A stretch of 64,000 nucleotides of DNA, from positions 16,662-80,661 of the forward strand of contig DIWU01000003.1 in assembly GCA_002428525.1 (NCBI GenBank), read 5' to 3'. Source of the DNA: a bacterium UBP14_UBA6098 (GTDB lineage: Bacteria > UBP14 > UBA6098). The first letter of the stretch is position 1; each line of letters opens with the position of its first letter. Positions 7,067 through 47,840 of the stretch are shown here, piece by piece. Both the position numbers and the translations under genes were made by a program. The notes below the pieces were generated by a model, which did no database searches, was not told where the DNA came from, and saw nothing but the letters and a program-made list of their open reading frames with translations.

Positions 7067-9499
7067 TTATTTGAGCATAACCATCCGTTTGGAGATCGAC
7101 TTGTCGCCGGCCTCGAGGCGGTAAAGATATATGCCGGAGGGCATCTCGCGGCCTTTGTCGTCGCGGCCCTCCCAGATGATGCGATACGTTCCGGCTGTGA
7201 AGTTATCGTCCACGAGCGTGGTTACCTTCTCGCCGAGGACATTGTAAACCTCGAGCTTCGCCGGCTGGTCGGCGGGAATATCGAACTCGATCGCAGTTGT
7301 CGGGTTGAAGGGGTTCGGGGAGTTGCTCTTGAGGGCAAGTTCCTTCGGCAGATAGGACCCATCCTCGCCAACCCCCGTGACGCCGGTGACGACACAGCGG
7401 ATCATCAGATCGATGTTGTTCAGCGGCGCGGAGGCGCTGGCCAAATCGCTTGTGTCGATAGCGACGAGCGTTCCGAACTCGTCGAAGTAATGGATTATCG
7501 CAAATCCTTTGCGATCGACCGGAGTCGTGTTGTCGATACCGACAACCGGCATCTGGCTATCGATCGCGACACCGACGAACACGAAGAACGTCGAGTCCGG
7601 AAGACTCACGGGCGAGTCTGACAGATCGATAGTCACCCAAGAGCCGTTGGTCGGATCCGAATCGATAGTATGGTTGGCGTCGTAAAGCTCGGTTCCACCG
7701 TTGGGGATATCGAAGATGCCGTTATCCAGCACCATCACGCGCGCTGAGCCGCTGTATTTCGTGAAGAATTTGACATGAGTAAGACGAAGGGTCTGAAGAC
7801 CGGCCGTCTGGTAGAAGAAGTTCCCGATACAATCGCCGGCGACCATCGATGGGCCGAGGAAGCCATTATAGCTGAGGCCGCTGGTCGGGTCGGTGGCGAC
7901 ATCGTTCAAACCGTCGTCCCAACCGAGCTCGCGAACCTCGGCTCCGGGAACTGTGAATGTAGTTTGGAAGGTGTCGTTCGAGACATTGAGGTCGGTGCCC
8001 AAGGAGGTCCAGACCCTGATAGAGTAGTCACCCGGCTGAGTGAGTTGAAGCTGTGCAACCGCTGTGCCGAACTTCGCGGGGGCTATCGTCGGGCGCGGGA
8101 AGAAGGTCATCGTCGTGTCGTGCATATCAGGGAAGGTGATGACGCCGTTGACTTGAATCAGGCTCTCATCCGACATCCCGAGGTTCGAGACCTTAACAGT
8201 GAAACGACCGTAATCGCGGAAATTGAGCGGCCCGGTGACGACATCGGTCGGGGCGATATCGTGAAGCGGGGCATAGTTGCCCGAAATGGTGACATCGTCG
8301 ATCTTAAACCACTGGGACTCATTCGGTTGGCCGTCACCGCGAGCCATAATCATGATCTGAATGTCCTTGCCGGCGAACTCGAGAAGCGAATTCCTCATGC
8401 CGTAGGCGACATCATAGAGCACGCTCTCATCGTAGAGACGCCATGTCTCGTCGATATAGCCGGGACGGTAATAGTTATGGGACATCTGAACCATTGAGTC
8501 CGCGTCCAAATCTTTGACATAGATGACGATATAATCGTCGAGCGAGCCGTCATCGTTGGGATCGAAATCGGCGCAGTTGGTTTTGATATAGAAACTGAGT
8601 GTGCCGTTGAAGGTGTCGGCAAGGCTAATCACCGGAGAAACGAGTGTGCTATAGGTCTCCGAGCGGTTGTATGCAACCGCGCAACCGCTTCCGGTATTGG
8701 CGTCGGTGGTGGTCGCCTCCCATGTCATAAGCTCGCGGCCTTGAGAGGCCACCGAAGCGCCCGAGCCGGAATCGTAGAGAAGCGTGTCGCTGTCGCTTGT
8801 AATCACGATCTCGTCAACAATCCAGCCGAACATAGTCGAGTCGAAGGCGTCGGCGTCGCTGTGCGTCGGGCCTGTGCTGAACATCATGTCCGACGCGAAG
8901 ACAAATCTGACCTTCACTCTCCTGCCGGCGAAATCGGAAAGGGAGGCTGTGATCGTTTCGAAGGTGGTCGCGCCGTGAATGCCCGTCCATGCGGCATAGC
9001 CGGGGCCGAGGCCGCAGAAGCCGAAGCCCCAGAGGCTTGTGCAATTGTAGGCCGAACCGGCGCCGGGAGTGAGAGTCGCCCAAGTGGCGCCGTCATCGGT
9101 GGAAACCCACACCGCCGCGCCGTCCCAGCCGTCGTAACCGAAGGGCCAGCCGCTGGTTCCCGCAGGCTCGGTATTGAGTTTGTGCTTGAATGTTAATGTA
9201 GCGGTCATCGCGGTCATCGGAATAGAAACAGCCGGCATATCGAGGTATTGAAGCCAGCCGTCGTTGTAGCCGTTGTAGCCGGTCCCGCCGACATCCAAAG
9301 TCCCACACCAATAGCTCAATCCGTCATAGGAGTTGAATGTGTCCGCGTGCCAATAGGCATCTGTGTCGTCATACCAATACAAGTCGCCGACTTCCCATGT
9401 CATCGGCCCCTCGAAACCCTCATATAAAAGTGTATCGACCTGACCGAAGACGGCGCCGGCAAATATCGCTAAACACAGCGATAATAAAAGCCTCTTCAT
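7067..9499 (-). CDS. T9SS-secreted protein with MAM/jelly-roll-like domains, function unknown
   Basis: 810 aa. Signal peptide MKRLLLSLCLAIFAGAVFGQ. N-terminal LYEGFEG..W..GD.W motifs typical of MAM-like domains. C-terminal SPNPFNPTTAIEFDIPADQPAKLEVYNVLGEKV...SGIYLYRLEAGDKSISKRMVMLK is a T9SS CTD. Confidence 0.75.
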   Translation of the reverse strand: MKRLLLSLCLAIFAGAVFGQVDTLLYEGFEGPMTWEVGDLYWYDDTDAYWHADTFNSYDGLSYWCGTLDVGGTGYNGYNDGWLQYLDMPAVSIPMTAMTATLTFKHKLNTEPAGTSGWPFGYDGWDGAAVWVSTDDGATWATLTPGAGSAYNCTSLWGFGFCGLGPGYAAWTGIHGATTFETITASLSDFAGRRVKVRFVFASDMMFSTGPTHSDADAFDSTMFGWIVDEIVITSDSDTLLYDSGSGASVASQGRELMTWEATTTDANTGSGCAVAYNRSETYSTLVSPVISLADTFNGTLSFYIKTNCADFDPNDDGSLDDYIVIYVKDLDADSMVQMSHNYYRPGYIDETWRLYDESVLYDVAYGMRNSLLEFAGKDIQIMIMARGDGQPNESQWFKIDDVTISGNYAPLHDIAPTDVVTGPLNFRDYGRFTVKVSNLGMSDESLIQVNGVITFPDMHDTTMTFFPRPTIAPAKFGTAVAQLQLTQPGDYSIRVWTSLGTDLNVSNDTFQTTFTVPGAEVRELGWDDGLNDVATDPTSGLSYNGFLGPSMVAGDCIGNFFYQTAGLQTLRLTHVKFFTKYSGSARVMVLDNGIFDIPNGGTELYDANHTIDSDPTNGSWVTIDLSDSPVSLPDSTFFVFVGVAIDSQMPVVGIDNTTPVDRKGFAIIHYFDEFGTLVAIDTSDLASASAPLNNIDLMIRCVVTGVTGVGEDGSYLPKELALKSNSPNPFNPTTAIEFDIPADQPAKLEVYNVLGEKVTTLVDDNFTAGTYRIIWEGRDDKGREMPSGIYLYRLEAGDKSISKRMVMLK

Positions 9500-9621
9500 T
9501 AATCCTCCTTAGTTGGTTGAATAATTAATCGCATATATGTTTCATTATATTCGGCTTGCTCGATATGTCAAGACCGAAAAGCCAAAAAAACATATGTCAA
9601 AACTATCCATACAATATCACT

Positions 9622-9763
9622 CCGGGGCGTCGGGATAACTCCATCCTTTGGAAAGCGGGCTTTCAAAAGGATGGAGTTATCTCCGACAGGCCGGGCGGCG
9701 ATTTTTGACATGGCAAAATTTTCGCTCCGGCCTGTCGGCCCGCGCATGCGCGGCCGACGCCCC
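9622..9763 (+). repeat. Structured intergenic repeat, copy 1 (nested inverted repeats: outer GGGGCGTCGG/CCGACGCCCC, inner hairpin, CCGACAGGCCGG/CCGGCCTGTCGG, palindrome CGCGCATGCGCG), followed by TTTTT
   Basis: Direct inspection of the sequence. The same architecture recurs at 12563..12698. Confidence 0.8.
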
Positions 9764-9855
9764 TTTTTATTATGTTGAGTTTGAGAGCAAATAAATCTGC
9801 GTAAAGCTAATAAAATCTATTTGAATTTGGGAATAAAAAAGCATATAAATAGTAG

Positions 9856-10110
9856 ATGAATCGTGAAAAGGTATTAAGCGAACTCGAAGAATTAGCTTCG
9901 CGGATAGGCATTACAATCCGTTACGAGAAGATGGGGACTATCTCCGGCGGTTTGTGTCGAATTCACGACGGCGAGGTGATACTTATCAACCGGCATCTCT
10001 CGACCGCGTCGAAGATCGAGCTTTTGGCGAAGGAGCTTATGCTTGAATCGGAGAAGCTCGAGGCCGTTTTCATCCTTCCCGAGATAAGGGACATCATCGG
10101 TCTATCGTGA
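9856..10110 (+). CDS. Hypothetical small protein (84 aa), translationally coupled to comEC
   Basis: ATG start after an AT-rich promoter-like region. Its stop TGA overlaps the GTG start of comEC (GTGA at 10107-10110). No recognisable domain; it is not ComEA-like (no HhH motif). Confidence 0.45.
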   Translation: MNREKVLSELEELASRIGITIRYEKMGTISGGLCRIHDGEVILINRHLSTASKIELLAKELMLESEKLEAVFILPEIRDIIGLS

Positions 10111-12554
10111 AACGGCGCGTTTTGCTCCCGATGCCGCTTTTATGGGTTTTCCTCGCATTAATTGTCGGTATTGCTTTCGCGTCGAGCTTTGGTTTTGATT
10201 CGCGGGTGAGCTTGACGCTTTTTTTGGGGCTTGGGGTTTTGGCGTTAGTTTCGTCTTCATTTGTGAAATCCCCAAATTTCCGTTTTATTCCTTCATTACT
10301 GCTACTAAGTGCGGTGGCCTCTTTCGGGGTCTTCAGATACTCGATCGTCAGCGCGGTGAGTTCCGAAGATATTGTGCGTTTGGTAGGTCGTCAGGTGCGG
10401 CTTTTCGGCTCGGTCGGCGAGGAAATTCAGGTGGAGGGCGAAAGGCAGAGGTTCGATCTCGAGGTAGATTCGGTCTCGATCGAGGGCGGGGTTTATACAG
10501 CGCGCGGAATTGCTCGAATTTATCTTTATCGCGCACGGACAGTGGATTTCGGCGATATTTTGGCTTTGGACTGCATACTCGAACAACCGCGCCCCGCGAC
10601 GAACCCTCACGGTTTCGATTTTCGTAAATCATTGGAACTCAAAGGGATAAAAACAATCGCCTTCGTTCGCGGAGACGACAACATCGCTATAATCGGAAAG
10701 AATACCGCGGGGCTATATCGGAGGCTGACCTGCGCGATTCGAGACCATGTCGAAAAAACAATAAAGCTAATTCCGGAATACGACGAAACCGCCTTGCTTC
10801 GAGGGCTTCTTCTCGGAAAGGGCGGAGAGCTTCCAACCCCTGTGCGAAGGGCCTTCGAGGACTCGGGAACCGTGCATATTCTCGCGGTGAGCGGCTTGCA
10901 TGTCGGCATCATCGCGGGGATTCTATGGCTTCTTTTCGGCAAGATAGTCAAGATGCCTAAGCCCTTGGCCGTTTGTTTGTGTATTCTCGGGCTTGCGCTT
11001 TATGCCGGTGTCGTCGGTGGAAGGCCCTCGGTTCTTCGCGCGGCGCTGATGTTCTCGATCATTCTTTTCGGCTCTGCCCTGAAGCGCCCCTCGAACCCGA
11101 TGAACTCGATCGGAGCGGCCGGCGCGACTCTGCTCGTCATCGAGCCGTTATGGCTTTTCGATATCGGCTTTCAGCTCAGCTTCGCGGCGACGCTCGGGAT
11201 TATATATCTTTTGCCCTACTTTGAGGAATGGCTTCCCGCGAGGCATGTTAAATCGGGGTTTTTACGGAAGTTCGTCCTCGGAGCGTTGGCCGTCTCGATA
11301 GCGGCGAATATCGGCACCGCGCCGTTTGTAGCGTTTGTTTTTCATAGACTTCAAACAATTTCCCCGCTGGCGAATATCTTCGTAGTGCCCTTCGTAGGCT
11401 CGATCATCGGTTACGGCATACTCGCATCGGTGTTATCGCTCTTTTGGGAAAACGGCGCGATATGGGTGCTTCAGTTCGACCGCCTGATCCTGCGGGTGAT
11501 TCTCGAAGCGGCATCGTTTTTCGCCACGACGAGGTTTTCGTATCTCCCCTTTCCAAGGCCGGCGATCGCCGCTTTCGGTTTGTATTATTTGTTTATTATC
11601 GCCCTTCCACCGATCCTATCGCGCCGAACAAAAGGCATCCTCGCAATCGGGATTTTCCTCACTGCGGCCGCCGCCTCGACATGGGCGATGTTCGAGATGT
11701 CCAGACAGAGGCTCGACTGCGACCTCCGAGTGACCTTCTTCGATATCGGCCAAGGGGACTGCGCGCTGATTGAATTCAAGGACGGCCGCAAAGCGATTAT
11801 CGACGGCGGCCCGCCGGATAACGCCGCCTTCGCTGTCCTCCCCTATCTCGAATCGAACTCGATCGCGAAAATCGACCTCGCAATCCTTTCACACCCGGAC
11901 GCCGACCACCTCGGCGGAATCGTAGATATCTTCGACGAGGTGCCCTACGATGCCCTCGCAGTCCCGCACAGAATAAGAACCAACGACCTTTACGGGCGCT
12001 TTCTCGATCGGCTCGATTCCCTCGAAGTTCCGATTACAATATATACAGCGGGGGACACAATCCCCGGCTTCCCAGAGCTGATCGCTATATGGCCGGATTC
12101 AACAGCCGTTTCACCCGCCGGCTCCCTGCTCGTCAATGTCAACGAGGCCTCGCTTGTAATACTGCTCGAGCTGGGCGAGGTGGAATTCTTGTTCTGCGGA
12201 GATATAGGCTTCCCCTCAGAGGCATATATCGAGGGCATCGAAGAGGAGATCGATATCCTCAAAGTCCCCCATCACGGCGGTAAATTCAGCTGTAGCCAAG
12301 GCCTCATCGAGACCGCGACACCCCTCGCATCGATAGTCTCGGTCGGAGCGAAAAACCGTTTCGGACACCCCTCCCCTCAAGTCTTAGATCGCTTGAATAA
12401 GTCCGGCTCGGAAACCTTCCGAACAGATATATCGGGTGCAATCACAATCGAGGTTCTCGGCGATTCGATATTCATCGAGACCTTCGACGGCAATACCCTC
12501 CGCTTCTCAGGCCTCGACCAACCCCTTCCGCGCCGAGATAGCCCGCAAATTTAA
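10107..12554 (+). CDS. comEC: DNA internalization-related competence protein ComEC/Rec2
   Basis: 815 aa. N-terminal DUF4131-like region, polytopic competence domain, and a C-terminal metallo-beta-lactamase fold with LSHPDADHLGG. Confidence 0.9.
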   Translation: MKRRVLLPMPLLWVFLALIVGIAFASSFGFDSRVSLTLFLGLGVLALVSSSFVKSPNFRFIPSLLLLSAVASFGVFRYSIVSAVSSEDIVRLVGRQVRLFGSVGEEIQVEGERQRFDLEVDSVSIEGGVYTARGIARIYLYRARTVDFGDILALDCILEQPRPATNPHGFDFRKSLELKGIKTIAFVRGDDNIAIIGKNTAGLYRRLTCAIRDHVEKTIKLIPEYDETALLRGLLLGKGGELPTPVRRAFEDSGTVHILAVSGLHVGIIAGILWLLFGKIVKMPKPLAVCLCILGLALYAGVVGGRPSVLRAALMFSIILFGSALKRPSNPMNSIGAAGATLLVIEPLWLFDIGFQLSFAATLGIIYLLPYFEEWLPARHVKSGFLRKFVLGALAVSIAANIGTAPFVAFVFHRLQTISPLANIFVVPFVGSIIGYGILASVLSLFWENGAIWVLQFDRLILRVILEAASFFATTRFSYLPFPRPAIAAFGLYYLFIIALPPILSRRTKGILAIGIFLTAAAASTWAMFEMSRQRLDCDLRVTFFDIGQGDCALIEFKDGRKAIIDGGPPDNAAFAVLPYLESNSIAKIDLAILSHPDADHLGGIVDIFDEVPYDALAVPHRIRTNDLYGRFLDRLDSLEVPITIYTAGDTIPGFPELIAIWPDSTAVSPAGSLLVNVNEASLVILLELGEVEFLFCGDIGFPSEAYIEGIEEEIDILKVPHHGGKFSCSQGLIETATPLASIVSVGAKNRFGHPSPQVLDRLNKSGSETFRTDISGAITIEVLGDSIFIETFDGNTLRFSGLDQPLPRRDSPQI

Positions 12555-12782: not shown

Positions 12783-14066
12783 TTGGAGAAGGATATTAAG
12801 AAGACTGTTCTCTCGAATGGCATACGGGTATTGTCTTTGCCGCTGGCATCGAGGCGCGGCGCGGCTGTTGGTGTATGGATCGATGCGGGTAGCCGCGACG
12901 ATCCCGCAGGAAAGGCGGGCTTGAGCCATTTGGCCGAGCACATGTCTTTCAAGGGAACACCGACGCGTAGCGCTTTGGATATAGCCCGCGAGCTCGAGAG
13001 TATAAGCGCTTCGGAGGACGGCTACACCTCGCAGGAGGAGACTTGTTATTACTTGTATCTCCCGGGCGAGGAGATCGGCAGGGGGATGGAGATTTTGGGC
13101 GATATGGTCTCTCACGCCGCGATCGACGCGAAACTTTTCGAGCGCGAACTTTCGGTTGTTGCGAGCGAGATGAGCGATGTCGAGGACACCCCCTCGGAGA
13201 TCGCCCGCGACTATTTCGCGACGGCGATCTTCGGCGACCATTCGCTCGGCAAACCGATCTTGGGCTACCCCTCGACCTTGAAGGCCATATGTCGCGACGA
13301 TGTCGCCTCTTTTGTGAAGGGGCATTATGTCGCTCCGCGGATCATTCTCGCCGCAGTCGGAAATATCGACCACGAGGAGTTCTGCGACCTTACAACCCGC
13401 TTTTTCGATGTCAGCGGTGAAGGTTTACCGAAGGATCGTATCGCGCCTGCTCCAACGCCGACCGGAAAGCTTCACCTGATCGAGAAAAAAACCTCGCAAC
13501 TTTCGATCTATCTCGGTGGCAGGGCCTATCGCTTCGATGACCCGCGCAGATACAGCCTCGCCGTGTTCGACACAATACTCGGTCGAGGCGCTTCGAGCCT
13601 GCTCTTCAACCGCCTTCGCGAGGAGGAGGGAATCGGCTATCGAATCTTCTCCTTCGAGGAATACTTCGGAGACTGCGGACTTTGGGGCATCTACGCCAAT
13701 CTCGACCCCACGGATTTCGAGCGGTTTTTCGGGATAGTCGATTCGATTTTCGACGATATCGTCGAGGGAAGGGCCGTAAACGAGCGTTTCGAGGAGACGA
13801 TTCGCGGCTTGACAGGCATGGCCAAACTCGAAGGCGATTCAATAAGCCAGTTGTTGACCCGCTTGGTCGAGACCGAGCTTTACTGCGGCAGATATATCTC
13901 GCCGGAGGAAACCCTCTTCAAACTGGCCTCGATCAGGCCGGCCGATGTCATCGAGACCGCGCGGGAACTGCTCGATCGCCGCAAGATTACAGGCGTTTAC
14001 TACGGCAAATCAAAATCGCGAACCTTCCCCGAATGGCTCGCTCCGGTGAAGGGCGAATTGGCATGA
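12783..14066 (+). CDS. Zinc peptidase, M16 (insulinase/pitrilysin) family
   Basis: 427 aa. Inverted zinc-binding motif HLAEH (HxxEH) near the N-terminus. Two-lobed M16 architecture. TTG start. Confidence 0.85.
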   Translation: MEKDIKKTVLSNGIRVLSLPLASRRGAAVGVWIDAGSRDDPAGKAGLSHLAEHMSFKGTPTRSALDIARELESISASEDGYTSQEETCYYLYLPGEEIGRGMEILGDMVSHAAIDAKLFERELSVVASEMSDVEDTPSEIARDYFATAIFGDHSLGKPILGYPSTLKAICRDDVASFVKGHYVAPRIILAAVGNIDHEEFCDLTTRFFDVSGEGLPKDRIAPAPTPTGKLHLIEKKTSQLSIYLGGRAYRFDDPRRYSLAVFDTILGRGASSLLFNRLREEEGIGYRIFSFEEYFGDCGLWGIYANLDPTDFERFFGIVDSIFDDIVEGRAVNERFEETIRGLTGMAKLEGDSISQLLTRLVETELYCGRYISPEETLFKLASIRPADVIETARELLDRRKITGVYYGKSKSRTFPEWLAPVKGELA

Positions 14067-14509
14067 ATACTGCGCCAAAGGTTGAATATATAGTTGTCCG
14101 CGCGAATGCCGCCGAGCCTCGCTATATGAGCGCCGGCAGTGCGGGCGCCGATCTTTTCGCCTGCCTCGACGAGGCGATTATATTAGAACCGAAGGCCTTC
14201 GCGACAATTCCAACCGGAATCGCGATGGCTATCCCCGTGGGTTGGGAGGGCGAGGTCAGACCGAGAAGCGGTCTCGCGTCGCGCTTCGGAGTGACTGTTC
14301 TCAACGCCCCGGGGACGATCGACTCGGACTACCGCGGCGAGGTCAAGGTCATTTTGATAAATCACGGCCGAGTGCCATTAACGATAAACTCCGGCGACCG
14401 AATCGCGCAGATTCTTATAAAACCGGCGATTCGCGCAAATTACGTTGTTTCGAGCGAGCTGGACAAATCCGAACGCGGCGAGGGCGGCTTCGGCTCGACC
14501 GGCAAATAG
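14063..14509 (+). CDS. dut: dUTP diphosphatase (dUTPase)
   Basis: 148 aa beginning MNTAPKVEYIV... Motifs AGADL, RSGLA, GTIDSDYRGE and the C-terminal GGFGSTG are diagnostic. The ATG overlaps the M16 stop (ATGA). Confidence 0.9.
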   Translation: MNTAPKVEYIVVRANAAEPRYMSAGSAGADLFACLDEAIILEPKAFATIPTGIAMAIPVGWEGEVRPRSGLASRFGVTVLNAPGTIDSDYRGEVKVILINHGRVPLTINSGDRIAQILIKPAIRANYVVSSELDKSERGEGGFGSTGK

Positions 14510-14527
14510 CGCAAGTAGATAGGCAAA

Positions 14528-15742
14528 ATGCTCAACACACTTAAAAAAATCGCTTTCGAGCGCGTCGGTGGAACCGAGGAGGAACGCCGCGTTTTCGATA
14601 TCTTGGCCGAAGAGGTGCGCGCGCGCGGGATCGAGCCGACTCTCGAGGCCTTCGAGGTCGAGACCTTCCGCCGTGGCACCGGCGAAGTGACACTTCTAAA
14701 AGACACGCCGGTTCGCTTCAATGTCAATCCCATCGGCCTTTCCGGCTCGGCCGATCTCGATGCGGAATTCCGCTATATCGAGCCCTCGAACCTCCCCTTC
14801 GCCGAACCCTGCCCGGGACAAATCGTCATCCTGCCCGAGCGCGTCTCCTTCAAGCATTACGAGCAACTCGCGCGCATCGGGGCCGCGGGATTCATCGTCG
14901 TCAACCCCCCGGGACATAAGCCCGGATATCATTCGCTGAAAAAGAACTTCGCCTCCCGCTTCGGGAAGATTCCCGGCGCGGTCATCGGCTATGAGGCCGG
15001 CCTGAAACTCATCTCCAATGCTAAACATATGTTACATATGTCTTTACAGCAAGATGAGTTCGTCGGGGAAAGCCATAATCTGATCGCCACGATCGAAGGC
15101 GAAAGACCCGAAGGCGAGATCTTCGTCTGCGCCCATGCCGACAGTGTCGCCGGCTCCCCCGGCGCGGTGGACAACGGCGCCGGTTGCGTCGAGATGCTCG
15201 GCTTGATCGGCCACTTCGCCAAGAATCCCCCTCGCCGGACTATGCACTTTTGCTTCTTCGGAAGCGAGGAACTCGGCCTTTTGGGGAGTTACGCCTTCGT
15301 CGAACGCCACAAGGCCGAGCTCGACAAGATCGCGGTGGTCTTCAACCTCGATGTCGGCGGCGATATCTTCGGCGACAACAAGGCCCTCATCACCGGCGAT
15401 CAGGATTTAGCGAACTTCGTCGATAGCCATAACAAACTGCGCGGCATGGGTTTACACGTCACGCGCTCGATCTATTCGAGCGACAATATGCATTTCGCGC
15501 GCTACGGCATCCCCTCGATAAACTTCGCGCGTTCGGGCCTCGGCGCCTCGCTCGGCCATTCTATCGACGACGACCTGCGCAATGTCGATGAGCGCTCGCT
15601 TCGCTCCCTCGCCGAGATTGCCCTCGAGTTCGCAATAGTCACCGCAAACGCAATAGCCATGCCCTTCGAACGCAAAATCCCCAAAGATATTTCAGATGAG
15701 GTGACGAAATACTTCGGCGAAAGGTTCGGCATTGAGACGTAA
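14528..15742 (+). CDS. Zn-dependent aminopeptidase, M28 family
   Basis: 404 aa. M28 metal-binding region HADSVAGSPGAVDNGAGCVEML and downstream FGSEELGLLGS. Confidence 0.85.
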   Translation: MLNTLKKIAFERVGGTEEERRVFDILAEEVRARGIEPTLEAFEVETFRRGTGEVTLLKDTPVRFNVNPIGLSGSADLDAEFRYIEPSNLPFAEPCPGQIVILPERVSFKHYEQLARIGAAGFIVVNPPGHKPGYHSLKKNFASRFGKIPGAVIGYEAGLKLISNAKHMLHMSLQQDEFVGESHNLIATIEGERPEGEIFVCAHADSVAGSPGAVDNGAGCVEMLGLIGHFAKNPPRRTMHFCFFGSEELGLLGSYAFVERHKAELDKIAVVFNLDVGGDIFGDNKALITGDQDLANFVDSHNKLRGMGLHVTRSIYSSDNMHFARYGIPSINFARSGLGASLGHSIDDDLRNVDERSLRSLAEIALEFAIVTANAIAMPFERKIPKDISDEVTKYFGERFGIET

Positions 15743-17324
15743 GTTATTATCATTATTTATGTTATCCCTTTTCGTCGCCTCCGGTGTCGCGGTTGAAAAG
15801 TGCGGCCTGCCCGAGCTTATTATGTCGAAAGCACCGTTGACCCTTTCCCGGCCTATTCGCGAATGCTCTTACGACTCAGGGCATTTCCGCGTTTGGTTCG
15901 ACACGACCGGCGTCCATGCTATCCCCCTTCGCGACAGTCTCCCCGCCGACGGCGTGCCCGATTGGGCGCAATGGGCTACTGAATACCTTGAACGCGCCCG
16001 CGCCCTATTGGTAGATACTCTCGGCTACCGCCATCCGATCGCGGATTCGAGCACCTTTTCCGGCAGAACCGATGTCGGCGGCGATGACCGCACCGATATC
16101 TACTTCACCGATATGGAGTTCTACGGAATGACCTATCTCGATACGATGCTCGCCGGCGGTGTCGGGCCAGCATTCTTGACTATCGAGAACGATTATGAGG
16201 AAGCGAGTTTTCCAAATTACATCGGTCGCGAGGAACAAGCACTTGCTGTCACCTGCGCGCACGAGTTTTTCCATGCCATTCATTATGCCTATGGCAGTAA
16301 CAGTTCTTGGACATGGTGGATGGAGGCGACTGCAGTTTGGGCGGAGGAGCGGGTGTTTCCACATGTTAATGATTATTTAGCTTATCTTACTGCTTTTCAG
16401 GCCTCTCCTGAGGCCGGTTTAAATAACAATACGCCTTCCGGCAGGTTTTACGGCTCCTGTCTTTTTCCTATGTTCCTATCGGCAAACTACGGCGATTCGG
16501 CTATTTTCGAGATTTGGTCGAACATTCCGTCGAACAATGTATATCCTGCTATTTCATTATGGGCAAATGATTTAGGTATTAATCTAAAATCTCTTTACGG
16601 CAATTTCGCATTATGGAATCTTCTGGTTGATGATAATTACCGAGAATATGGTTACATCGATGCGCCTCTAATGCCTAAACCAAAGCTCACTCATCGCGAT
16701 TCACTGCCGGATAATCTCACCGCCGCGGGCGGTGCAGTCTATATTTCTCTACCAAAATATATTGATGGCGGCCTTTGGGCGGAATACTCGCCCGCAGATT
16801 CTATCTCGGCATTATTACATAGTATTTCATATACAGGTAATGATTTTTCAGATACTACTCTTAATATTTTTAATCGCCCCGACACAATCCCCGGAACATG
16901 GCGTTTCGATGGGGTTTACACTGTATTGGCCAATCTCGGAACTACACCGTCATCTTCGGCGAGGCTCGGGCAAATCCTTACAGGCCCTGCACCATCTGCT
17001 CGAGTCCCAATCCCCGACGATGTCCTCGATCGAACGCCTTATCCAAACCCATTCATTTACAGCGAAGCGGAAACGCTTTACATACCCTACACTTCTTCCG
17101 GTGAGTTCCCGATCCGCTTTTCCGTTTGGAATGTCGCAGGAGAGCTTATTTACGAGCGAGTCGATATGACTACATTTGGTTATCATCTAACAAAACGAGG
17201 AGCTCTCCCGTGGGTGCCGCAAAATTATACCGGCAAATCGCTTGCGAGTGGAGTTTATGTTTACATTTTGAGTATAGAAAATAATTCCTTTACAGGACGA
17301 TTCGCAATTATCAATGATAATTAA
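15732..17324 (+). CDS. Secreted zinc metalloprotease (HExxH) with T9SS C-terminal sorting domain
   Basis: 530 aa from a TTG start (alternative ATG at 15759). Signal peptide present. Motif TCAHEFFHAIHY (HExxH). C-terminus YPNPFIYSEAETLYIPYTSSGEFPIRFSVWNVAGELIYERVD...SGVYVYILSIENNSFTGRFAIIND is a T9SS CTD. The 3' half is anomalously low in GC. Confidence 0.75.
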   Translation: MRRKLLSLFMLSLFVASGVAVEKCGLPELIMSKAPLTLSRPIRECSYDSGHFRVWFDTTGVHAIPLRDSLPADGVPDWAQWATEYLERARALLVDTLGYRHPIADSSTFSGRTDVGGDDRTDIYFTDMEFYGMTYLDTMLAGGVGPAFLTIENDYEEASFPNYIGREEQALAVTCAHEFFHAIHYAYGSNSSWTWWMEATAVWAEERVFPHVNDYLAYLTAFQASPEAGLNNNTPSGRFYGSCLFPMFLSANYGDSAIFEIWSNIPSNNVYPAISLWANDLGINLKSLYGNFALWNLLVDDNYREYGYIDAPLMPKPKLTHRDSLPDNLTAAGGAVYISLPKYIDGGLWAEYSPADSISALLHSISYTGNDFSDTTLNIFNRPDTIPGTWRFDGVYTVLANLGTTPSSSARLGQILTGPAPSARVPIPDDVLDRTPYPNPFIYSEAETLYIPYTSSGEFPIRFSVWNVAGELIYERVDMTTFGYHLTKRGALPWVPQNYTGKSLASGVYVYILSIENNSFTGRFAIINDN

Positions 17325-17364
17325 TTGTTATCTTTTTGTAACAAGTGTTATCTTTTTATAACAC
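17325..17364 (+). promoter_or_regulatory. Two tandem palindromic operator-like sites upstream of the M42 peptidase gene
   Basis: TTGTTAtctttttgTAACAA (17325-17344) is immediately followed by GTGTTATctttttATAACAC (17345-17364) and then ATAACATAACG. These are near-identical 20-mers with 6-7-bp inverted arms, lying 60-100 bp upstream of the ATG at 17423. Confidence 0.35.
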
Positions 17365-17422
17365 ATAACATAACGCAATTTGAATTATATCTAATAAACT
17401 ACACTTAAAGAATGGAGTTATT

Positions 17423-18466
17423 ATGAATTGGCCGCTACTCATCGAGCTTTGCGATACACCCGGAGCGCCCGGGCATGAAGAAAGTATCGCGAAAATCGCT
17501 CACAGAGAGTTTTCAAAGTTCACGGATGATGTCACAATAGATTCTGTTGGAAATGTTATAGCGCACATCCACGGCGATGGCCTTAAAGTCGCTCTCGATG
17601 CGCATTCTGACGAAGTTGCCTTCATCGTCTCACATGTTGACAAAGAGGGTTTCATACGAGTTATTCCCTTGGGCGGAATCGACCCAAGAGTTTTCACTGC
17701 ACAACGAGTAGTCGTTCACGGCAAAACCTTACTACGCGGCGTTGTTGGCTCCATTCCGCCTCATCTAACCAAGGGCAAAGAGGCAGAACGCGACCGTTCG
17801 GTGCCGATCGAAGATTCCTTCATCGACACGGGACTTCCGGCCGCAAAAGTCCATGAATTGGTCAAAATCGGCGACATCGTGACATTCGACAGCCCGACCA
17901 CCGATATCGGCGAAGCCTTTATAGGCAAGGCTTTCGACGATCGCGCCGGTCTTTTCGCGATGATCGAGGCGGTTCGCTCCGCAAAAAGGATAGCCTGCGA
18001 CCTATTCCTCGTCGCGGCGGTGCAGGAGGAGCGCGGCCTTAGAGGCGCAGAGTGCGCGGCCTTTTCCGTCGCGCCTGATGTCGCGATCGCAATCGAAGGA
18101 ACCTTCGCCAACGATGTTCCCGGAACACCTACATACCAAAGGCTTGCCTGCCACGACCGCGGTCCGGAGCTTCGTATCGTCGATGGTCGCGTCATCGCAG
18201 ATCGCGGCCTCGTCGCATTCTTGGACGAGTTAGCCGCCGAACGCGAGATCCCTCACCAGCTCATCGTGAAATCGGCCGGAACGACTAACGCCACAGCGAT
18301 TCAGACCTCCCGCGGAGGGGTTCGCGTCGCGGCTGTCTCGATGCCGGTTCGATATATCCACAGCCCTACGGGCATAATAAAGAAAGGCGACATCGAGCAG
18401 TCTGTTAAGCTCATCGCCGCCTTCCTCGAAAACGCGGATAGGTTGCCGCCGAAGTCTATTTCCTGA
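17423..18466 (+). CDS. M42 family metallopeptidase (glutamyl aminopeptidase/FrvX-like)
   Basis: 347 aa. Similar across its length to M42 (cellulase-M/deblocking aminopeptidase) family members: ...GNVIAHIHGDG..., ...FDDRAG..., ...VQEERGLRGA... Confidence 0.9.
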   Translation: MNWPLLIELCDTPGAPGHEESIAKIAHREFSKFTDDVTIDSVGNVIAHIHGDGLKVALDAHSDEVAFIVSHVDKEGFIRVIPLGGIDPRVFTAQRVVVHGKTLLRGVVGSIPPHLTKGKEAERDRSVPIEDSFIDTGLPAAKVHELVKIGDIVTFDSPTTDIGEAFIGKAFDDRAGLFAMIEAVRSAKRIACDLFLVAAVQEERGLRGAECAAFSVAPDVAIAIEGTFANDVPGTPTYQRLACHDRGPELRIVDGRVIADRGLVAFLDELAAEREIPHQLIVKSAGTTNATAIQTSRGGVRVAAVSMPVRYIHSPTGIIKKGDIEQSVKLIAAFLENADRLPPKSIS

Positions 18467-19097
18467 GGCCGATCGGCATGAAATAGCGCGGCACCCCCGG
18501 AACCGCAAATAGCTCGGAAACCGCGTCATCATTGAATGCGCCGATTGCGACTGTGGATAGGCCGAGTCCTTCGGCGGTCAGATAGATATTCTGGCCGATA
18601 TGGCCGATCTCCATGTCAACATAGCGCTCAGCGCGGTCGCCGTAGCGTCCGGAGGTTCTATTCACCACCGCGAAAAGGCAAATCACACAGGCCGCGGTTC
18701 GTAGCGAGCCCTGTCCGAGGGCGGCCCCGGCGAGGGCCTCCGCAAAATACCCCTCGCGAAGCAGTGAGAGCGAATGGCCGGCTTCGTTGTATTTGTAGAT
18801 GCCGGGCGCAAGGCCCTCGACGCGTTCGACCAAGAGATAAGTGTCTATCGGATAGGTAGCCCCTGCACTCGGGGCCGCCCGATGCCCCGAGGCGGCATCG
18901 GTGATCCCCGCCGACGACCAAAGCAGTTCTGCGGCTTGATCCAAAGAGATAGCTCCCTCGGCGAAAACTCGCCTGCTTCGGCGGTTTTCAATCGCGCTGT
19001 GGAGGTCGATATCGTTGCCGGGCGGAGGCGGAAGCTTTACTATTTGGCTCATCGCTGATAACCCCATGAATGCTAATATGTAAATCGCTAACTTCAC
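18456..19097 (-). CDS. Nitroreductase-family (SagB-like) oxidoreductase
   Basis: 213 aa. RRSRRVF motif and nitroreductase-fold similarity (...GATYPIDTYLLV...PGIYKYN...). No adjacent YcaO gene. Confidence 0.65.
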   Translation of the reverse strand: MKLAIYILAFMGLSAMSQIVKLPPPPGNDIDLHSAIENRRSRRVFAEGAISLDQAAELLWSSAGITDAASGHRAAPSAGATYPIDTYLLVERVEGLAPGIYKYNEAGHSLSLLREGYFAEALAGAALGQGSLRTAACVICLFAVVNRTSGRYGDRAERYVDMEIGHIGQNIYLTAEGLGLSTVAIGAFNDDAVSELFAVPGVPRYFMPIGLRK

Positions 19098-19101
19098 CGC
19101 T

Positions 19102-19710
19102 CTATTTCTTGACTATTTCAGCCTTTTGAATATAGACTTTATTTGCAGGTTTACCCATACGAGGATCGGCCATCTGGACTTCGGCTATCTTATCAACGAC
19201 CTCGATGCCCTCCTTGACAGCACCGAAGACAGTGTAGCCGCCGTCGAGATGCGGTGCGGCCTGATGGCAGATGAAGAACTGGCTTCCGCTCGAGGCCTTC
19301 TCCGGGTTGACCTGATCACCCAAACGGGCTGTGGCCAAGGCTCCGCGGACATGCTTGAGATCGGTGATCTCCGCGGGGATTGTGTAGCCCGGGCCGCCGG
19401 TGCCGTCACCGGTAGGGTCTCCGCCCTGAATCATGAAGCCCTTGATGATCCGGTGGAAGGTCAATGAATCGTAGAACCCCTCCTGCGTGAGTTTGAGGAA
19501 ATTCTCGACGGTCTTTGGGGCTTTGTCCGGGCGAAGTTCGACGAGGATGTCGCCAAAATCAGTCTTTAAGCGGACTAAAGGCCTTTCGGTTGCTTCTTGA
19601 TTCGGTTGCGTCATTTGTTGATCTCCTTTCATCGCTGACATCTCGGCCTCTTTACATCCGGTCATAAAAACCGCTACGCAAAAAACCGCGAGCAGAATGG
19701 CTTTCTTCAT
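19102..19710 (-). CDS. Peptidyl-prolyl cis-trans isomerase, cyclophilin type, predicted lipoprotein
   Basis: 202 aa. Lipoprotein signal MKKAILLAVFCVAVFMTGC. Cyclophilin core ...FHRIIKGFMIQGGDPTGDGTGGPGY... Confidence 0.9.
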   Translation of the reverse strand: MKKAILLAVFCVAVFMTGCKEAEMSAMKGDQQMTQPNQEATERPLVRLKTDFGDILVELRPDKAPKTVENFLKLTQEGFYDSLTFHRIIKGFMIQGGDPTGDGTGGPGYTIPAEITDLKHVRGALATARLGDQVNPEKASSGSQFFICHQAAPHLDGGYTVFGAVKEGIEVVDKIAEVQMADPRMGKPANKVYIQKAEIVKK

Positions 19711-19724
19711 TTCGTTCCTCCGTT

Positions 19725-22418
19725 CTATTTTTGGTTTGTCGAATTTGTTGGGGTGATGTTGTATTTTTTTAATTTACTTCGCGCCATTGCGACGAGAGAA
19801 TCGTTTTCCGAGACCTGAATCAGCCATTCCCAAACACGCTTAGCATCGGAGAGAGAGCTTCGCGATTCGAGTGAAATCGCGAGGTCGTAGAGCAGGCTCT
19901 GATCCACGGTGGCGGGGCATTTGGAGGTCGAGACAACAGGGTTCGGGACTAACCTCTCAACCGCGAGATCGACCCATCCGAGGCGGAGGGCGTGTTTGCC
20001 CATCTGCACTCCAAGCTCGCACTTGAGGCTATCCTGAGGCAGTGTATCGAAAACCGCCCTCGCGAGGTCGAAGCCGTGCTCGAAATCGGCCATGGAATAC
20101 ATGACGCGCACAAGGCCGATAAGCGCTTGAAGCCTGAATTGAGTAAGGGCGCGCTCGTTTTCGTAAATATTCTTAAAAAGTATCTCCGCTTCGGGGAACT
20201 TGCCGAGACGCTCATAGCTGGCCGCGAGTTTCAGTTCGGCGAGGGCGATCTGCTCTTCGTTTTTGGCAAACTCGAGAACTCGGTTGTAGGTGGCGGTGGC
20301 CGATTCGAACTCACCTATAGAGTGGAGATAATCGCCGAGCGCAATAACTCCGCGTGCCGCGGTCGCCGAGGTGTCGAACTCGCCTAAAAGTTGCCCGAAG
20401 ATCTCGCCCGCGGCGGTCGTGTCGCCCATGCCAAGATAGCAGAGGCCCATGCGATAGCTGGCCTCGATCCAAAGCGAGTCGGGGATATTTCGGTGGCGCA
20501 GGCGGTCGAAGGCGATAGCGCCCTTTTCGTAGTCGCCGACATTGCAAAGATAACTTCCGATATCGAGGAGAATCTCGCCTATCAATGGCGAATCGGGGTA
20601 TTTTTGAAGGAATTTCTCGGAGACCTCGAGCGGATTTGAGTAAATTCCGGCTTGGAATCGCGCCCTTTCGCCGAGGATTCTGACCCGGTCGGCCTTTTCG
20701 CGGGAGATCGAATAGATATCGACTTGATCCGAGAGCGGTATCAGCTTTGTGAAGTCGCGGCGGCTGAAGAGGATATCGGCATACTGCGAGACTATCTCCT
20801 CCGCGAAGGGGCTTCTGCGGAATTTCGCCATGAACTCCTGCGAGGTGACGATTATTCGGTCGGTATCGCCGGTGGCCTTGTAGGCCTTTATCAGGTCGAA
20901 GAGGATATCATCGACGAGGTCGTCGTGTGCGAGGGGCAAGAAATCGTTAAGTTCGGCGATCGCCCGCTTCGGCCTGCCCTCGAGCAGGAAGGTTCTCGCA
21001 TAGGCGTGTCTGGCGGACTGGGAGAAATCGTCTTCGAAGCCGGAGAAGACCGAGGATAGGTGGATTCTCGAGTCGTCGTAGTTTCGGAGCTTCAGGTATG
21101 ACCATCCGAGGCCCCAGCTGGCCTCTCTGAAACGGTTGTTGCAACAGCTTTGAGTGATCTTGTAAAAATCTACCGCCTCCGAATACTGCTTGCGGTTGTA
21201 TGCGCATTCGCCGGCGAAGAGGAAACATTCGCCGGTGAGGGTTTTATCCTCGGCGGTCTCCGCGGCTTGCAGGAATCTTTCTTGGGCTGTGACAAACTCG
21301 CCGTCCTCCATGAAGAGGTAGGCGATTCTCATAAGGACATCGGCGTAGAGGTCCGGGGAAAGGGCCTCGAGCAAGGCGCTGTCGCGGGCGGCGTCTGTGG
21401 CGCGCGTCTCGATTTCGCTGATAATCGAGAGATAGGGCAATCGGCCGATATACGGCGATTCGGGGAAGGAGTATTCGAGCTTCTGAAAGCGCCGGACCGC
21501 AACGATATGGCGCCCCTCCATAAAATCGACGGCTCCGAGCATGAATTGCGCCTCGTCCGACCACCAATGGGCGGATTTTCTTTGGGAGAGGTCGTAGAAC
21601 TCGAGGGCTTCGGTGAGGTAGTTTCGGCAGGAGGCCCAGTCCTCGCGGGCGAAGGCTATCGACGCGAGGCGATATTTGATCTCGCCGCTCAGGAGGCTAC
21701 GTGGAAATTTTTCGAGCAGTTCCTCGAAGGCCGCGGTAGCGAACTCCGTCTGCCCGAGTCGGCTGTAGGACAGGCCGAGAAAGTAGCCGGATATCAGTCT
21801 GAGTATATTCTGGCTGGAACCGTCTCGAGAGATGGGTATGAAGACCGTGATCGCGGAGTCGTATTCGCCGCCGGAGAAAAGCCATGCGCCGAGCCAGAAC
21901 CTGCCCCACGGCGGACTTCGGGTGCTGAACACCTCGCGGACGACGGATTTATCGCCGGCCTCTTGGGCCATCTCGCCGATCCAGAAAGCGGCCCAGTCGG
22001 CGAGGGGCGAGCCGTTGGGAATCGAGGCGATCTCCTGATAGTTACGGAGCGCGCGGTCGTTCCATCCGGCGCTTTGGAAGCTATAGGCCCGAAGGAGAAT
22101 ATCGCGGGTGTCGGTGCTTGCGAGTGTCCTGCGCGGGACGAAGAAATGCACAGCCTGCGGTTCTTTATCGAGAAGGCCCCTTGCCCAATAGCCTGAGAAG
22201 GGGCTTTGATCCGGTCGAGAGGAAATAATCGACGTGGCGAAAACGAGGCACAGCAGGAAGGGCCTAAGGCCTTTCGATAGCTTGATCCTCCTCGATCTCG
22301 TTTCTATTCGGGCTATATACTTGTGAGAGTCCGACGCCAATCGATGTCTCGCTTTTTCCCCAATAACTTGTCTCCAACGATAGAACATAACCTTTGCCGA
22401 GGTCGATGTCAAGCCCAA
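19725..22418 (-). CDS. Large tetratricopeptide-repeat protein, probably secreted
   Basis: Up to 897 aa, with many degenerate TPR units throughout. The annotated 5' end overlaps the upstream beta-barrel gene by ~155 nt, so the real start is probably near 22283, just before the hydrophobic segment LRPFLLCLVFATSIISS (signal-like). Confidence 0.65.
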   Translation of the reverse strand: MGLTSTSAKVMFYRWRQVIGEKARHRLASDSHKYIARIETRSRRIKLSKGLRPFLLCLVFATSIISSRPDQSPFSGYWARGLLDKEPQAVHFFVPRRTLASTDTRDILLRAYSFQSAGWNDRALRNYQEIASIPNGSPLADWAAFWIGEMAQEAGDKSVVREVFSTRSPPWGRFWLGAWLFSGGEYDSAITVFIPISRDGSSQNILRLISGYFLGLSYSRLGQTEFATAAFEELLEKFPRSLLSGEIKYRLASIAFAREDWASCRNYLTEALEFYDLSQRKSAHWWSDEAQFMLGAVDFMEGRHIVAVRRFQKLEYSFPESPYIGRLPYLSIISEIETRATDAARDSALLEALSPDLYADVLMRIAYLFMEDGEFVTAQERFLQAAETAEDKTLTGECFLFAGECAYNRKQYSEAVDFYKITQSCCNNRFREASWGLGWSYLKLRNYDDSRIHLSSVFSGFEDDFSQSARHAYARTFLLEGRPKRAIAELNDFLPLAHDDLVDDILFDLIKAYKATGDTDRIIVTSQEFMAKFRRSPFAEEIVSQYADILFSRRDFTKLIPLSDQVDIYSISREKADRVRILGERARFQAGIYSNPLEVSEKFLQKYPDSPLIGEILLDIGSYLCNVGDYEKGAIAFDRLRHRNIPDSLWIEASYRMGLCYLGMGDTTAAGEIFGQLLGEFDTSATAARGVIALGDYLHSIGEFESATATYNRVLEFAKNEEQIALAELKLAASYERLGKFPEAEILFKNIYENERALTQFRLQALIGLVRVMYSMADFEHGFDLARAVFDTLPQDSLKCELGVQMGKHALRLGWVDLAVERLVPNPVVSTSKCPATVDQSLLYDLAISLESRSSLSDAKRVWEWLIQVSENDSLVAMARSKLKKYNITPTNSTNQK

Positions 22419-46710: not shown

Positions 46711-46738
46711 GGGCGAACGCCCCCCCATTTTGTTGAAT
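46711..46738 (+). terminator. Rho-independent terminator after the aldehyde dehydrogenase gene
   Basis: GGGGGGGCGaaCGCCCCCCC hairpin followed by ATTTTGTTG. Confidence 0.7.
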
Positions 46739-46756
46739 GGAAAAAATGGAGAGAGA

Positions 46757-46984
46757 ATGAAACAAAAAGGTGTAGAAACGAAGCATGGTCGTTTCACTGC
46801 GATAATCGAACGAGACGAGGACGGCTATTTCGTCGGCACTGTTCCGACTTTGAAAAGCTGTTATACGCAGGCAAAAACTATAGACGAATTAGTAAATAGG
46901 CTCAAAGAGGTTATCCTTCTTTGCCTTGAGGAACAAGAAGCTACCGAACTCGAATTCGTAGGTATCCAGACTATTGAGGCTTAA
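46757..46984 (+). CDS. hicB: Type II toxin-antitoxin system antitoxin, HicB family
   Basis: 75 aa MKQKGVETKHGRFTAIIERDEDGYFVGTVPTLKSCYTQAKTIDELVNRLKEVILLCLEE..., with the UPF0150/HicB fold signature. GGAGAGAG RBS precedes the ATG. Confidence 0.8.
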   Translation: MKQKGVETKHGRFTAIIERDEDGYFVGTVPTLKSCYTQAKTIDELVNRLKEVILLCLEEQEATELEFVGIQTIEA

Positions 46985-46986
46985 AG

Positions 46987-47217
46987 ATGAGCCGTCTTCC
47001 GACTATCAACGCAAAAGTTATGATCTCATTTGTTGAGTCTAAAGGATTTGTTCTCTCAAGGCAAAAAGGAAGTCATAAAATATTTCGTCATCCTGACGGT
47101 CGAACGGCAACAATCCCATGCCATAAAGGCGAAGATCTGGGAAGAGGGATTGTCGTAAAAATATTAAACGATGTCGATTCGAATATTAGAGATTTTGAAG
47201 TATGGTTGAATAAATGA
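46987..47217 (+). CDS. hicA: Type II toxin-antitoxin system toxin, HicA family (mRNA interferase)
   Basis: 76 aa MSRLPTINAKVMISFVESKGFVLSRQKGSHKIFRHPDGRTATIPCHKGEDLGRGIVVKILNDV, showing the YcfA/HicA signature. Starts 3 nt after the hicB stop. Confidence 0.85.
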   Translation: MSRLPTINAKVMISFVESKGFVLSRQKGSHKIFRHPDGRTATIPCHKGEDLGRGIVVKILNDVDSNIRDFEVWLNK

Positions 47218-47255
47218 GTTATAAAACGGCTTGAAACCTCTCTTTTGGAGTCAAT

Positions 47256-47840
47256 ATGGCACTTTCGCCGCTTGAGATTAGAAATCAGGATTTTCCAAAG
47301 TCGCCGATGGGGTATAAGCGCGACGATGTCAAGTTCTTCCTCGCGCAGGTTGCCGAGTCGGTCGCGGAACTTCACAAGGAACGCGATCACCTTTCGCGCC
47401 GCCTCGAGACAATGACCAAGCGTATAAGCGAACTCGAGGCGCAGTCCGGCGCTATCGGCCATGCCCTCGATCTCGCGAAGAAAGAGGGTCAGGAGATAAT
47501 CAACCGCGCGCAGGAAGAGGCGCGGCATATACGCGAGGGCGCCGACGACGAGGCGCAGAAGGTCATGTCGCGATACACTCAGCAGATCAACGAGACCAAG
47601 CAGGAGCTTTACGAACTTACTACAATAAAAGACGCATATTTTCGCAAGCTTATGCGGGTTTTGGAGCTTCAGGACAAGGCGCTGAAACAGTTCGACGAGG
47701 AATACGAGGCCAGAAGGATTCGCGCCTCGATCGAGACGCTGGCCGCGGGTTTTCGCATCGAATTCCCCCTGTCGGACGAGTCGGTTTTCGGCAATTCAAC
47801 ACACAGGAGAAGGCGCTCGTCGCTCTTCCCGATGGATTAA
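47256..47840 (+). CDS. divIVA: DivIVA-domain cell-division protein
   Basis: 194 aa. N-terminal MALSPLEIRNQDFPKSPMGYKRDDVKFFLAQV is the canonical DivIVA start, followed by a coiled-coil. Confidence 0.8.
   Translation: MALSPLEIRNQDFPKSPMGYKRDDVKFFLAQVAESVAELHKERDHLSRRLETMTKRISELEAQSGAIGHALDLAKKEGQEIINRAQEEARHIREGADDEAQKVMSRYTQQINETKQELYELTTIKDAYFRKLMRVLELQDKALKQFDEEYEARRIRASIETLAAGFRIEFPLSDESVFGNSTHRRRRSSLFPMD

Follow-up and report, generated by a model that had tools for sequence, protein, structure and literature searches.

We examined a patch of low-GC DNA that crosses the boundary between two peptidase genes of the bacterium UBP14_UBA6098 (assembly GCA_002428525.1), in a stretch of 64,000 nucleotides (nt) of contig DIWU01000003.1 (positions 16,662 to 80,661 of the forward strand) that we call the window and whose own coordinates are used throughout. 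The patch begins inside the gene of an HExxH metalloprotease, takes in the spacer that follows and ends inside the gene of an M42-family aminopeptidase. In codon choice and dinucleotides it differs from its host genome and resembles a lower-GC relative, and we think it probable that the resident DNA was replaced here by the orthologous tract of such a relative. The features concerned are the following, where GC3 stands for the GC content of third codon positions and aa for amino acids.

15759..17324, + strand: gene of an MXAN_6640-family HExxH metalloprotease, 521 aa, chimeric in composition (NCBIfam NF045524, GC3 profile)
16157..16358, + strand: left junction interval (GC3 change point; the total-GC segment starts at 16356)
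16193..17767, + strand: low-GC patch (GC3 0.41 versus 0.70; total-GC core 16356..17665, 42.9% GC)
16260..16274, + strand: HEFFH zinc-binding motif, H168-E169-x-x-H172 (read from the sequence, invariant in the orthologue alignment, within the left junction interval)
17325..17422, + strand: intergenic spacer, 98 nt, 22% GC, entirely within the patch, whose lowest GC is centred here
17326..17363, + strand: palindrome TGTTAY-N6-RTAACA, present in two tandem (direct) copies at a distance of 20 nt, which follow the stop codon of the protease gene immediately
17423..18466, + strand: gene of an M42-family aminopeptidase, 347 aa (Pfam PF05343, GC3 profile)
17710..17866, + strand: right junction interval (GC3 change point; total GC recovering already from 17665)

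Composition of the patch

The low-GC patch is the strongest compositional anomaly of the 64-kb window. An earlier note on this DNA had placed an AT-rich island at 16360..17580, and the island itself stands: the segment has 42.8% GC, the AT-rich runs quoted for it are present in the sequence, and against all 1221-nt segments across the 64 kb (mean GC 0.567, standard deviation 0.034) it lies at z = -4.1, which exceeds the ordinary variation of the window. The window as a whole has 56.6% GC rather than the ~60% given there. The lowest-GC segment of that length starts at 16351, the runner-up being 9171..10391 with 47.2% GC, and in a log-odds segmentation the maximal-scoring low-GC segment is 16356..17665 (1310 nt, 42.9% GC), with a score of 52.4 versus 33.5 for the second. 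Most of the other low-GC segments in the window measure 100-850 nt, and they lie largely in intergenic DNA or at gene ends; the patch is ~93% coding and measures 1310 nt by total GC or ~1575 nt by GC3.

Third codon positions carry most of the signal. Fitted to GC3, a model with two change points has its edges at 16193 and 17767 (log-likelihood ratio 60.9), and the 2-log-likelihood support intervals of these edges, 150-200 nt each, are the junction intervals listed above. The 493 codons between the edges have a GC3 of 0.41, compared with 0.70 beyond them. In the 672 windows of 100 codons that lie outside the patch, GC3 is 0.709 +/- 0.063 and its minimum 0.46, and the ten lowest of all 693 such windows (GC3 0.33-0.45) all fall within it. 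Taken whole, the HExxH gene has a GC3 of 0.475 and the M42 gene one of 0.598, compared with 0.63-0.80 for the other 25 genes of the window. Both values average over two regimes: in the protease gene the 5' third is host-like (0.64-0.70) and the 3' two-thirds range from 0.26 to 0.50, and in the M42 gene the first ~80-115 codons are at 0.44-0.48 and the remainder is host-like again (0.62-0.72). The extent claimed earlier therefore needs correction at both ends, since of the protease gene's 521 codons the patch takes in all from ~146-200 onward, the 3' two-thirds and not the 3' half, and since it reaches ~240-345 nt into the M42 gene and not ~150 bp. That it crosses a gene boundary is borne out, with all three codon positions affected.

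Relatives that cover one or both genes number ten (L006, L008, L010, L011, L012, L013, L014, L172, L173 and L174), with a locus GC of 44-60%. In every one of them GC3 is uniform across the protease and M42 genes at the relative's own level, with no step and no partial dip. Both genes stand in the same order in seven of the ten, the low-GC ones including L006 (46%) and L011 (44%). A composition shared by the relatives' orthologues, which would have made the dip a lineage-wide feature, appears in 0 of 10, and among the ten relatives examined the compositional step is specific to this lineage. The closest named relative is a Candidatus Zixiibacteriota genome bin; a scan of GTDB species representatives found no closer relative.

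Given the amino acids encoded, the codons of the patch are fitted best by the usage table of L006 and worst by that of the host among seven tables, the margin being about 83 log units for the 374 codons of the protease part and 12 for the 115 of the M42 part, and control segments on both sides of the patch are fitted best by the host table. GC at first and second codon positions in the patch also fits the 46%-GC L006 far better than the host. The host flanks resemble high-GC relatives (GC at first codon positions, GC1, 0.595; FYMINK 0.236; GARP 0.307), and the patch resembles low-GC ones (GC1 0.532, FYMINK 0.271, GARP 0.271, GC3 0.399).

Dinucleotides were compared by the GC-normalised distance delta*. 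Between patch and host delta* is 123, in the top 3.7% of same-length host segments; between patch and L006 it is 43, and leaving out the L006 region orthologous to the patch raises it to 51. From L006, the remaining 294 segments of the host are 144 +/- 33 away (minimum 70), and the segments of L006 itself lie at 74 +/- 22 from the rest of L006. The orthologous tract of each relative is at 55-81 from its own genome; the relatives' tracts thus match their own genomes, and gene content does not explain the signature of the patch. To L014, which has the same GC as L006, delta* is 129. By codon-usage likelihood, dinucleotide signature and a spacer motif described below, the patch signature points to an L006-like genome. 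The codon-usage deviation expected in the earlier note is thus found, in the form of codons and dinucleotides that are those of a lower-GC relative and unlike those of the host genome. Its preference for a recombined or horizontally acquired segment over domain-specific codon bias is likewise favoured by a shift that is lineage-specific, crosses a gene boundary and carries relative-like codon and dinucleotide usage.

Junctions, proteins and spacer

The left junction interval holds the most conserved coding blocks of the five-gene region, 16224-16298 (with HEFFH) and 16314-16358, coding WWMEATAVWAEE, which among relatives reach the 96th-99th percentile of nucleotide identity and the 97th-100th percentile of amino-acid identity. 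The right junction comes directly after a conserved M42 block, 17588-17722 (95th-97th percentile for nucleotides, 92nd-99th for amino acids), so that both junctions abut top-5% conserved blocks, which are only ~80-84% identical in DNA among relatives. Conserved blocks are the expected crossover sites between diverged sequences. Because intervals of 150-200 nt would touch such blocks fairly often by chance, however, the coincidence is supportive rather than decisive. The hallmarks of a mobile element (integrase, tRNA, edge repeats, extra genes) are lacking at the patch: a tRNA scan found none in the 64 kb, an Rfam scan of the region returned no family, and a repeat scan found no direct or inverted repeats flanking the patch.

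The protease matches NCBIfam NF045524, a family related to Pfam DUF6055, with 192.4 bits (cutoff 140) over aa 45-314, and this match is common to 12 of 12 orthologues. The protein is colinear end to end with 11 orthologues, keeps every family-invariant residue and, at 521 aa, compares with 501-534 aa in relatives. In the predicted structure (mean pLDDT 69) HEFFH lies on helix 158-178, the zinc site would be built by helices 158-178 and 182-199, and the invariant residues E189, E196 and E197 are on the helix next after that of HEFFH. A fold search with the model gave a weak match to the M9 collagenase peptidase domain (TM 0.28-0.36). At the C-terminus the sorting domain of the type IX secretion system (T9SS; TIGR04183 / PF18962) scores 16.7 bits over aa 428-516, below its cutoff of 23, and sub-threshold matches recur among the 12 orthologues, four with TIGR04183, eight with the PorU model and six with the PorZ model. 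Residues 440-517 are modelled as a C-terminal beta-sandwich with a weak match to PorZ 5m11 (94 columns, rmsd (root-mean-square deviation) 4.0, 22% identity). From these sub-threshold matches and the model, the C-terminal domain is likely a T9SS type A sorting domain.

According to the model, the left junction falls at the two zinc-site helices, and the patch would encode the helices that form the C-terminal sub-domain of the catalytic domain (206-294), the beta-sandwich in the middle of the protein (326-411) and the C-terminal beta-sandwich (440-517). It had been suggested in the earlier note that the segment could be a swapped C-terminal module for substrate binding or sorting. This does not hold up, as the left junction, at 16157-16358, falls inside the MXAN_6640 catalytic domain (aa 45-314), and the replaced part is colinear with the orthologues throughout, in the manner of an orthologous allele replacement with no domain shuffling. 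The patch is not domain-modular, because its left junction lies inside the catalytic domain, at or just after the HExxH/EATAVWxEE block.

The M42 protein matches PF05343 with 268.1 bits (gathering score 23.2) from profile position 1 to 292 of 292, over aa 43-330. It aligns end to end with its orthologues, and its 347 aa compare with 341-347 aa in most relatives. Two of these orthologues, in L172 (1713-2756) and L173 (2343-3497), are 76-77% identical and stand in quite different neighbourhoods with no protease gene upstream, one adjoining a mechanosensitive channel gene and the other AbiEii; the differing neighbourhoods mark the region upstream of the M42 gene as a rearrangement point in the clade.

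Between the two genes, the spacer carries a ribosome-binding site, GGAG, at 17414-17417; among relatives the spacer varies from 10 to 279 nt in length. That the segment might bring a new promoter for the downstream gene, as proposed in the earlier note, is a conjecture. In a promoter and terminator scan of the region nothing delimited the patch, and the promoter-like matches were at chance level. With at most one mismatch, TGTTAY-N6-RTAACA occurs in the 64 kb only as the two copies behind the protease gene, where 0.05 are expected. Among the loci fetched, the paired motif is confined to this organism's copies and to L006 and L007, at the same position after the protease stop. In L006 (11597-11653), and also in L007, the pair forms the arms of a perfect 23-bp hairpin (-30.2 kcal/mol, z = -9.9). 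A metagenome scan for the paired palindrome returned at least 120 unrelated palindromes, and among the matches listed none stands beside homologues of the protease or the M42 gene. A similar tandem motif in L111 was rejected as belonging to an unrelated AT-rich contig. Judged by sequence, the pair is a candidate protein-binding site or hairpin remnant, which might be a terminator, an operator pair or a small repeat element.

Assemblies and gene neighbourhood

The locus is also present in one JGI assembly and in four Logan assemblies of separate SRA runs, all of them 100% identical to the window over both junctions. Five identical independent assemblies argue against a chimera. The JGI assembly (L001) differs from the window by one gap in 21 kb (99.995% identity). 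In the comparison of L001 12303-14730 with window 19725-22418 the TPR gene of L001 appears as two open reading frames (ORFs; 404 and 414 aa). In the Logan assemblies it is a single ORF of 808 aa, and an indel of one base in one of the assemblies probably accounts for the split.

The gene order M16 - dUTPase - M28 - HExxH - M42 - nitroreductase - PPIase - TPR - giant Big_1 protein is kept in relatives. The part at window positions 12783-22418, found also in L006, L010, L011 and L013, comprises the four peptidase genes (M16, M28, HExxH, M42) with those of the dUTPase, a SagB-type nitroreductase, the PPIase and the long TPR protein. The block that follows M42 has been relocated upstream in L012, and in L008 other genes take its place. 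The giant ORF (23111-38308, - strand) encodes 5065 aa with Big_1 / Invasin_D3 repeats, and its position is kept in most relatives (3549-5751 aa). A ComEC/Rec2-type gene at 10107-12554 (+ strand; DUF4131, Competence and Lactamase_B domains) lies 4 kb upstream of the patch; it would fit natural uptake of DNA, though genes of this type are widespread.

Elsewhere in the window, the sole coding stretch outside the patch in which GC3 falls as low as 0.46 is 6182-6556 (- strand), inside the ORF 4718-7006. It lies where AT skew is strong (0.27) and could encode a protein segment that is rich in repeats or of low complexity. Ranked second among the low-GC segments of the window, 46727-47299 (39.6% GC) contains a small pair of hicB-like antitoxin and HicA toxin genes (ORFs 46757-46984 and 46987-47217, both + strand; HicA_toxin 56 bits, HicB_lk_antitox 25.8 bits, slightly below cutoff), which looks like a separately acquired cassette.

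Origin of the patch and its implications

In our judgement it is probable that the stretch from ~16200 to 17770 was replaced by the orthologous tract of an unsampled, L006-like, Zixibacteria-related relative with ~44-46% GC, by crossovers in conserved blocks and presumably after DNA uptake. A resident tract of about 1.4-1.6 kb would have given way to that of the donor, through uptake of DNA (the ComEC gene being 4 kb away) and then recombination between diverged orthologous loci, the crossovers falling in the HExxH...EATAVWxEE-coding block of the protease gene and in the M42 conserved block at codons ~55-100. The protease would then be a hybrid, with a resident N-terminal lobe that likely includes the zinc-site helices at the junction, and with an imported C-terminal helical sub-domain, middle beta-sandwich and C-terminal sorting-type domain. 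The spacer with its paired palindromes would likewise be imported, and the M42 aminopeptidase would be a second hybrid. Both reading frames are intact across the patch.

Several results weigh against such a replacement. A search of the full-length protease against 5.8 billion proteins found no donor, the best non-self match being 65% identical, and a search with the full-length M42 protein found no homologue that is closer in the first 115 residues than in the rest. The star-like pattern of protein distances to the relatives is alike in patch and flanks, and the patch adds no extra branch length. Neighbour-joining bootstraps place the window with L008 in the flanks (85%) and with L006 in the patch (50%), a shift that lacks robustness, as both results change under Dayhoff recoding and when composition-sensitive columns are left out. 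Synonymous sites are saturated with respect to all relatives. Finally, RecA-type homologous recombination would be expected to be very inefficient if the donor was as far removed as the sampled relatives are, at ~36% protein divergence in the tract.

Further comparisons fill in this picture. When just the first 115 M42 residues served as query, no more than four candidates came back and the self match was missing, which makes this search uninformative. Protein comparison of the window with L006, L008 and L010 gives a star, the window's distance in the patch being no larger than theirs to one another, and unique changes in the patch number 24 in the window and 23, 23 and 24 in the relatives. 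Informative sites that group the window with L006/L008/L010 number 25/28/16 in the flanks and 11/5/9 in the patch. Sliding protein identity, quartet site counts and neighbour-joining bootstraps gave no robust change of topology between patch and flanks, and synonymous-codon identity at conserved residues showed no excess in the patch to any low-GC relative. A small residual synonymous excess to L008 and L010, seen in both flanks, is lost in the patch.

The want of a sampled donor, and of robust phylogenetic incongruence or a long branch in the patch, would be natural if the composition had shifted in place through local, long-lasting AT-biased mutation or selection with no transfer, and it is on the spacer (22%) that the lowest GC is centred. 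Such a shift could stem from an extended region about the M42 promoter that is regulatory or bound by nucleoid proteins, or from a cold spot of recombination that escapes GC-biased conversion; we know of no established mechanism for an in-place shift of this sort. We regard it as unlikely. Ten relatives lack even a partial dip, the tract is ~93% coding over 1.3-1.6 kb with its edges mid-frame in two genes, and its codon choice and dinucleotides match one relative (L006) instead of showing generic AT drift, as the delta* of 129 to L014 illustrates. A shift in place also predicts extra lineage-specific amino-acid changes, and the window's 24 equal the relatives' 23, 23 and 24. A bias belonging to genes or domains, such as slow-translation codons in secreted C-terminal domains combined with an AT-rich 5' end of the next gene, could draw on the general knowledge that AT-rich gene starts, and low-GC 3' ends by AT-rich spacers, are common. 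It is very improbable here, given that the orthologues in ten relatives are without it, that the shift starts inside the catalytic domain and away from a domain border, that it takes in 80-115 M42 codons, far past initiation effects, and that the change extends to GC1 and amino-acid usage.

A chimera of assembly or binning has to be considered too, because this is a metagenome assembly and graph assemblers can jump between sequences in conserved blocks such as those at the junctions. In that case conserved k-mers shared with a co-occurring low-GC relative would have led the contig into that relative and out again. There is very little chance of this: two identical switches would be needed in all five assemblies, which are 100% identical over both junctions, and the 5.8 billion proteins, which include these samples, contain neither an alternative high-GC version of the tract nor the flanking genes of a second organism. 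Between 65% and 100% identity for the protease, and between 78% and 100% for M42, there is no match at all, and conserved blocks with ~80-84% DNA identity are too dissimilar for long shared k-mers. Least credible of all is the insertion of a mobile element or genomic islet with new sequence. Islands are typically low in GC, and another low-GC segment of the window (46727-47299) does hold the hicBA cassette; the tract, however, adds neither genes nor length, both proteins align end to end with their orthologues, and no integrase, tRNA, direct repeats or inverted repeats occur at its edges. The chimera, codon-bias and mobile-element explanations are contradicted by the data.

Replacement by an orthologous tract has well-known counterparts. 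The mosaic penicillin-binding-protein genes of Streptococcus and Neisseria are the classic case of interspecies homologous recombination, at a divergence of ~5-25%. As in those genes, orthologous blocks are replaced here, with in-frame breakpoints, the frame kept and no hallmarks of mobile elements. Unlike them, the patch also spans a spacer and part of a second gene, and its donor and recipient would be more than 10 points of genomic GC apart, so that it is visible from composition alone; its donor is unsampled, no selective agent is known, and the divergence may be much higher than ~5-25%. With genomic islands and integrative elements the patch shares an atypical, lower GC and a dinucleotide signature that differs from the host's, whereas it has no added genes, integrase, tRNA target or flanking repeats, and is orthologous and colinear. 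Omelchenko et al. reportedly described, in 2003, 'mosaic operons' in which genes are displaced in situ within conserved operons; the patch is like these in being an ortho- or xenologous replacement that keeps the gene order of a conserved cluster, and unlike them in being sub-genic (two partial genes and a spacer) instead of comprising whole genes. Chan, Beiko, Darling and Ragan (2009; PMC2817436) found intragenic breakpoints in 19.6% of 1,462 prokaryote orthologue sets. Their fragmentary lateral genetic transfer has, as here, a sub-gene unit of transfer and breakpoints that ignore gene borders (PMC2817436). It was detected by phylogenetic discordance, whereas the patch was detected by composition and comparison, a star-like radiation leaving discordance beyond resolution.

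The patch is an instance of familiar mosaic genes and gene-fragment transfer and no new kind of system, unusual only in its clear compositional exposure and possibly in a large divergence between donor and recipient. We see only a slim chance that it reflects either sub-genic exchange in the clade at ~36% protein divergence and more than 10 GC points, possibly recurrent at this locus or spacer, or a local compositional regime in place. If a donor that distant did contribute, pieces of a conserved peptidase cluster would have been exchanged across divergences usually thought to block homologous recombination.

Replacement by a relative's orthologous tract would be a case of sub-genic exchange in an uncultivated lineage of the FCB group related to Zixibacteria, visible because the clade spans 44 to 60% GC. 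The tract also flags, upstream of the M42 aminopeptidase gene, a candidate regulatory pair of palindromes. Such a replacement would mean that one gene can be a hybrid of two lineages with the junction inside the catalytic domain, which bears on single-gene phylogenies, on composition-based binning and on the annotation of 'islands'.

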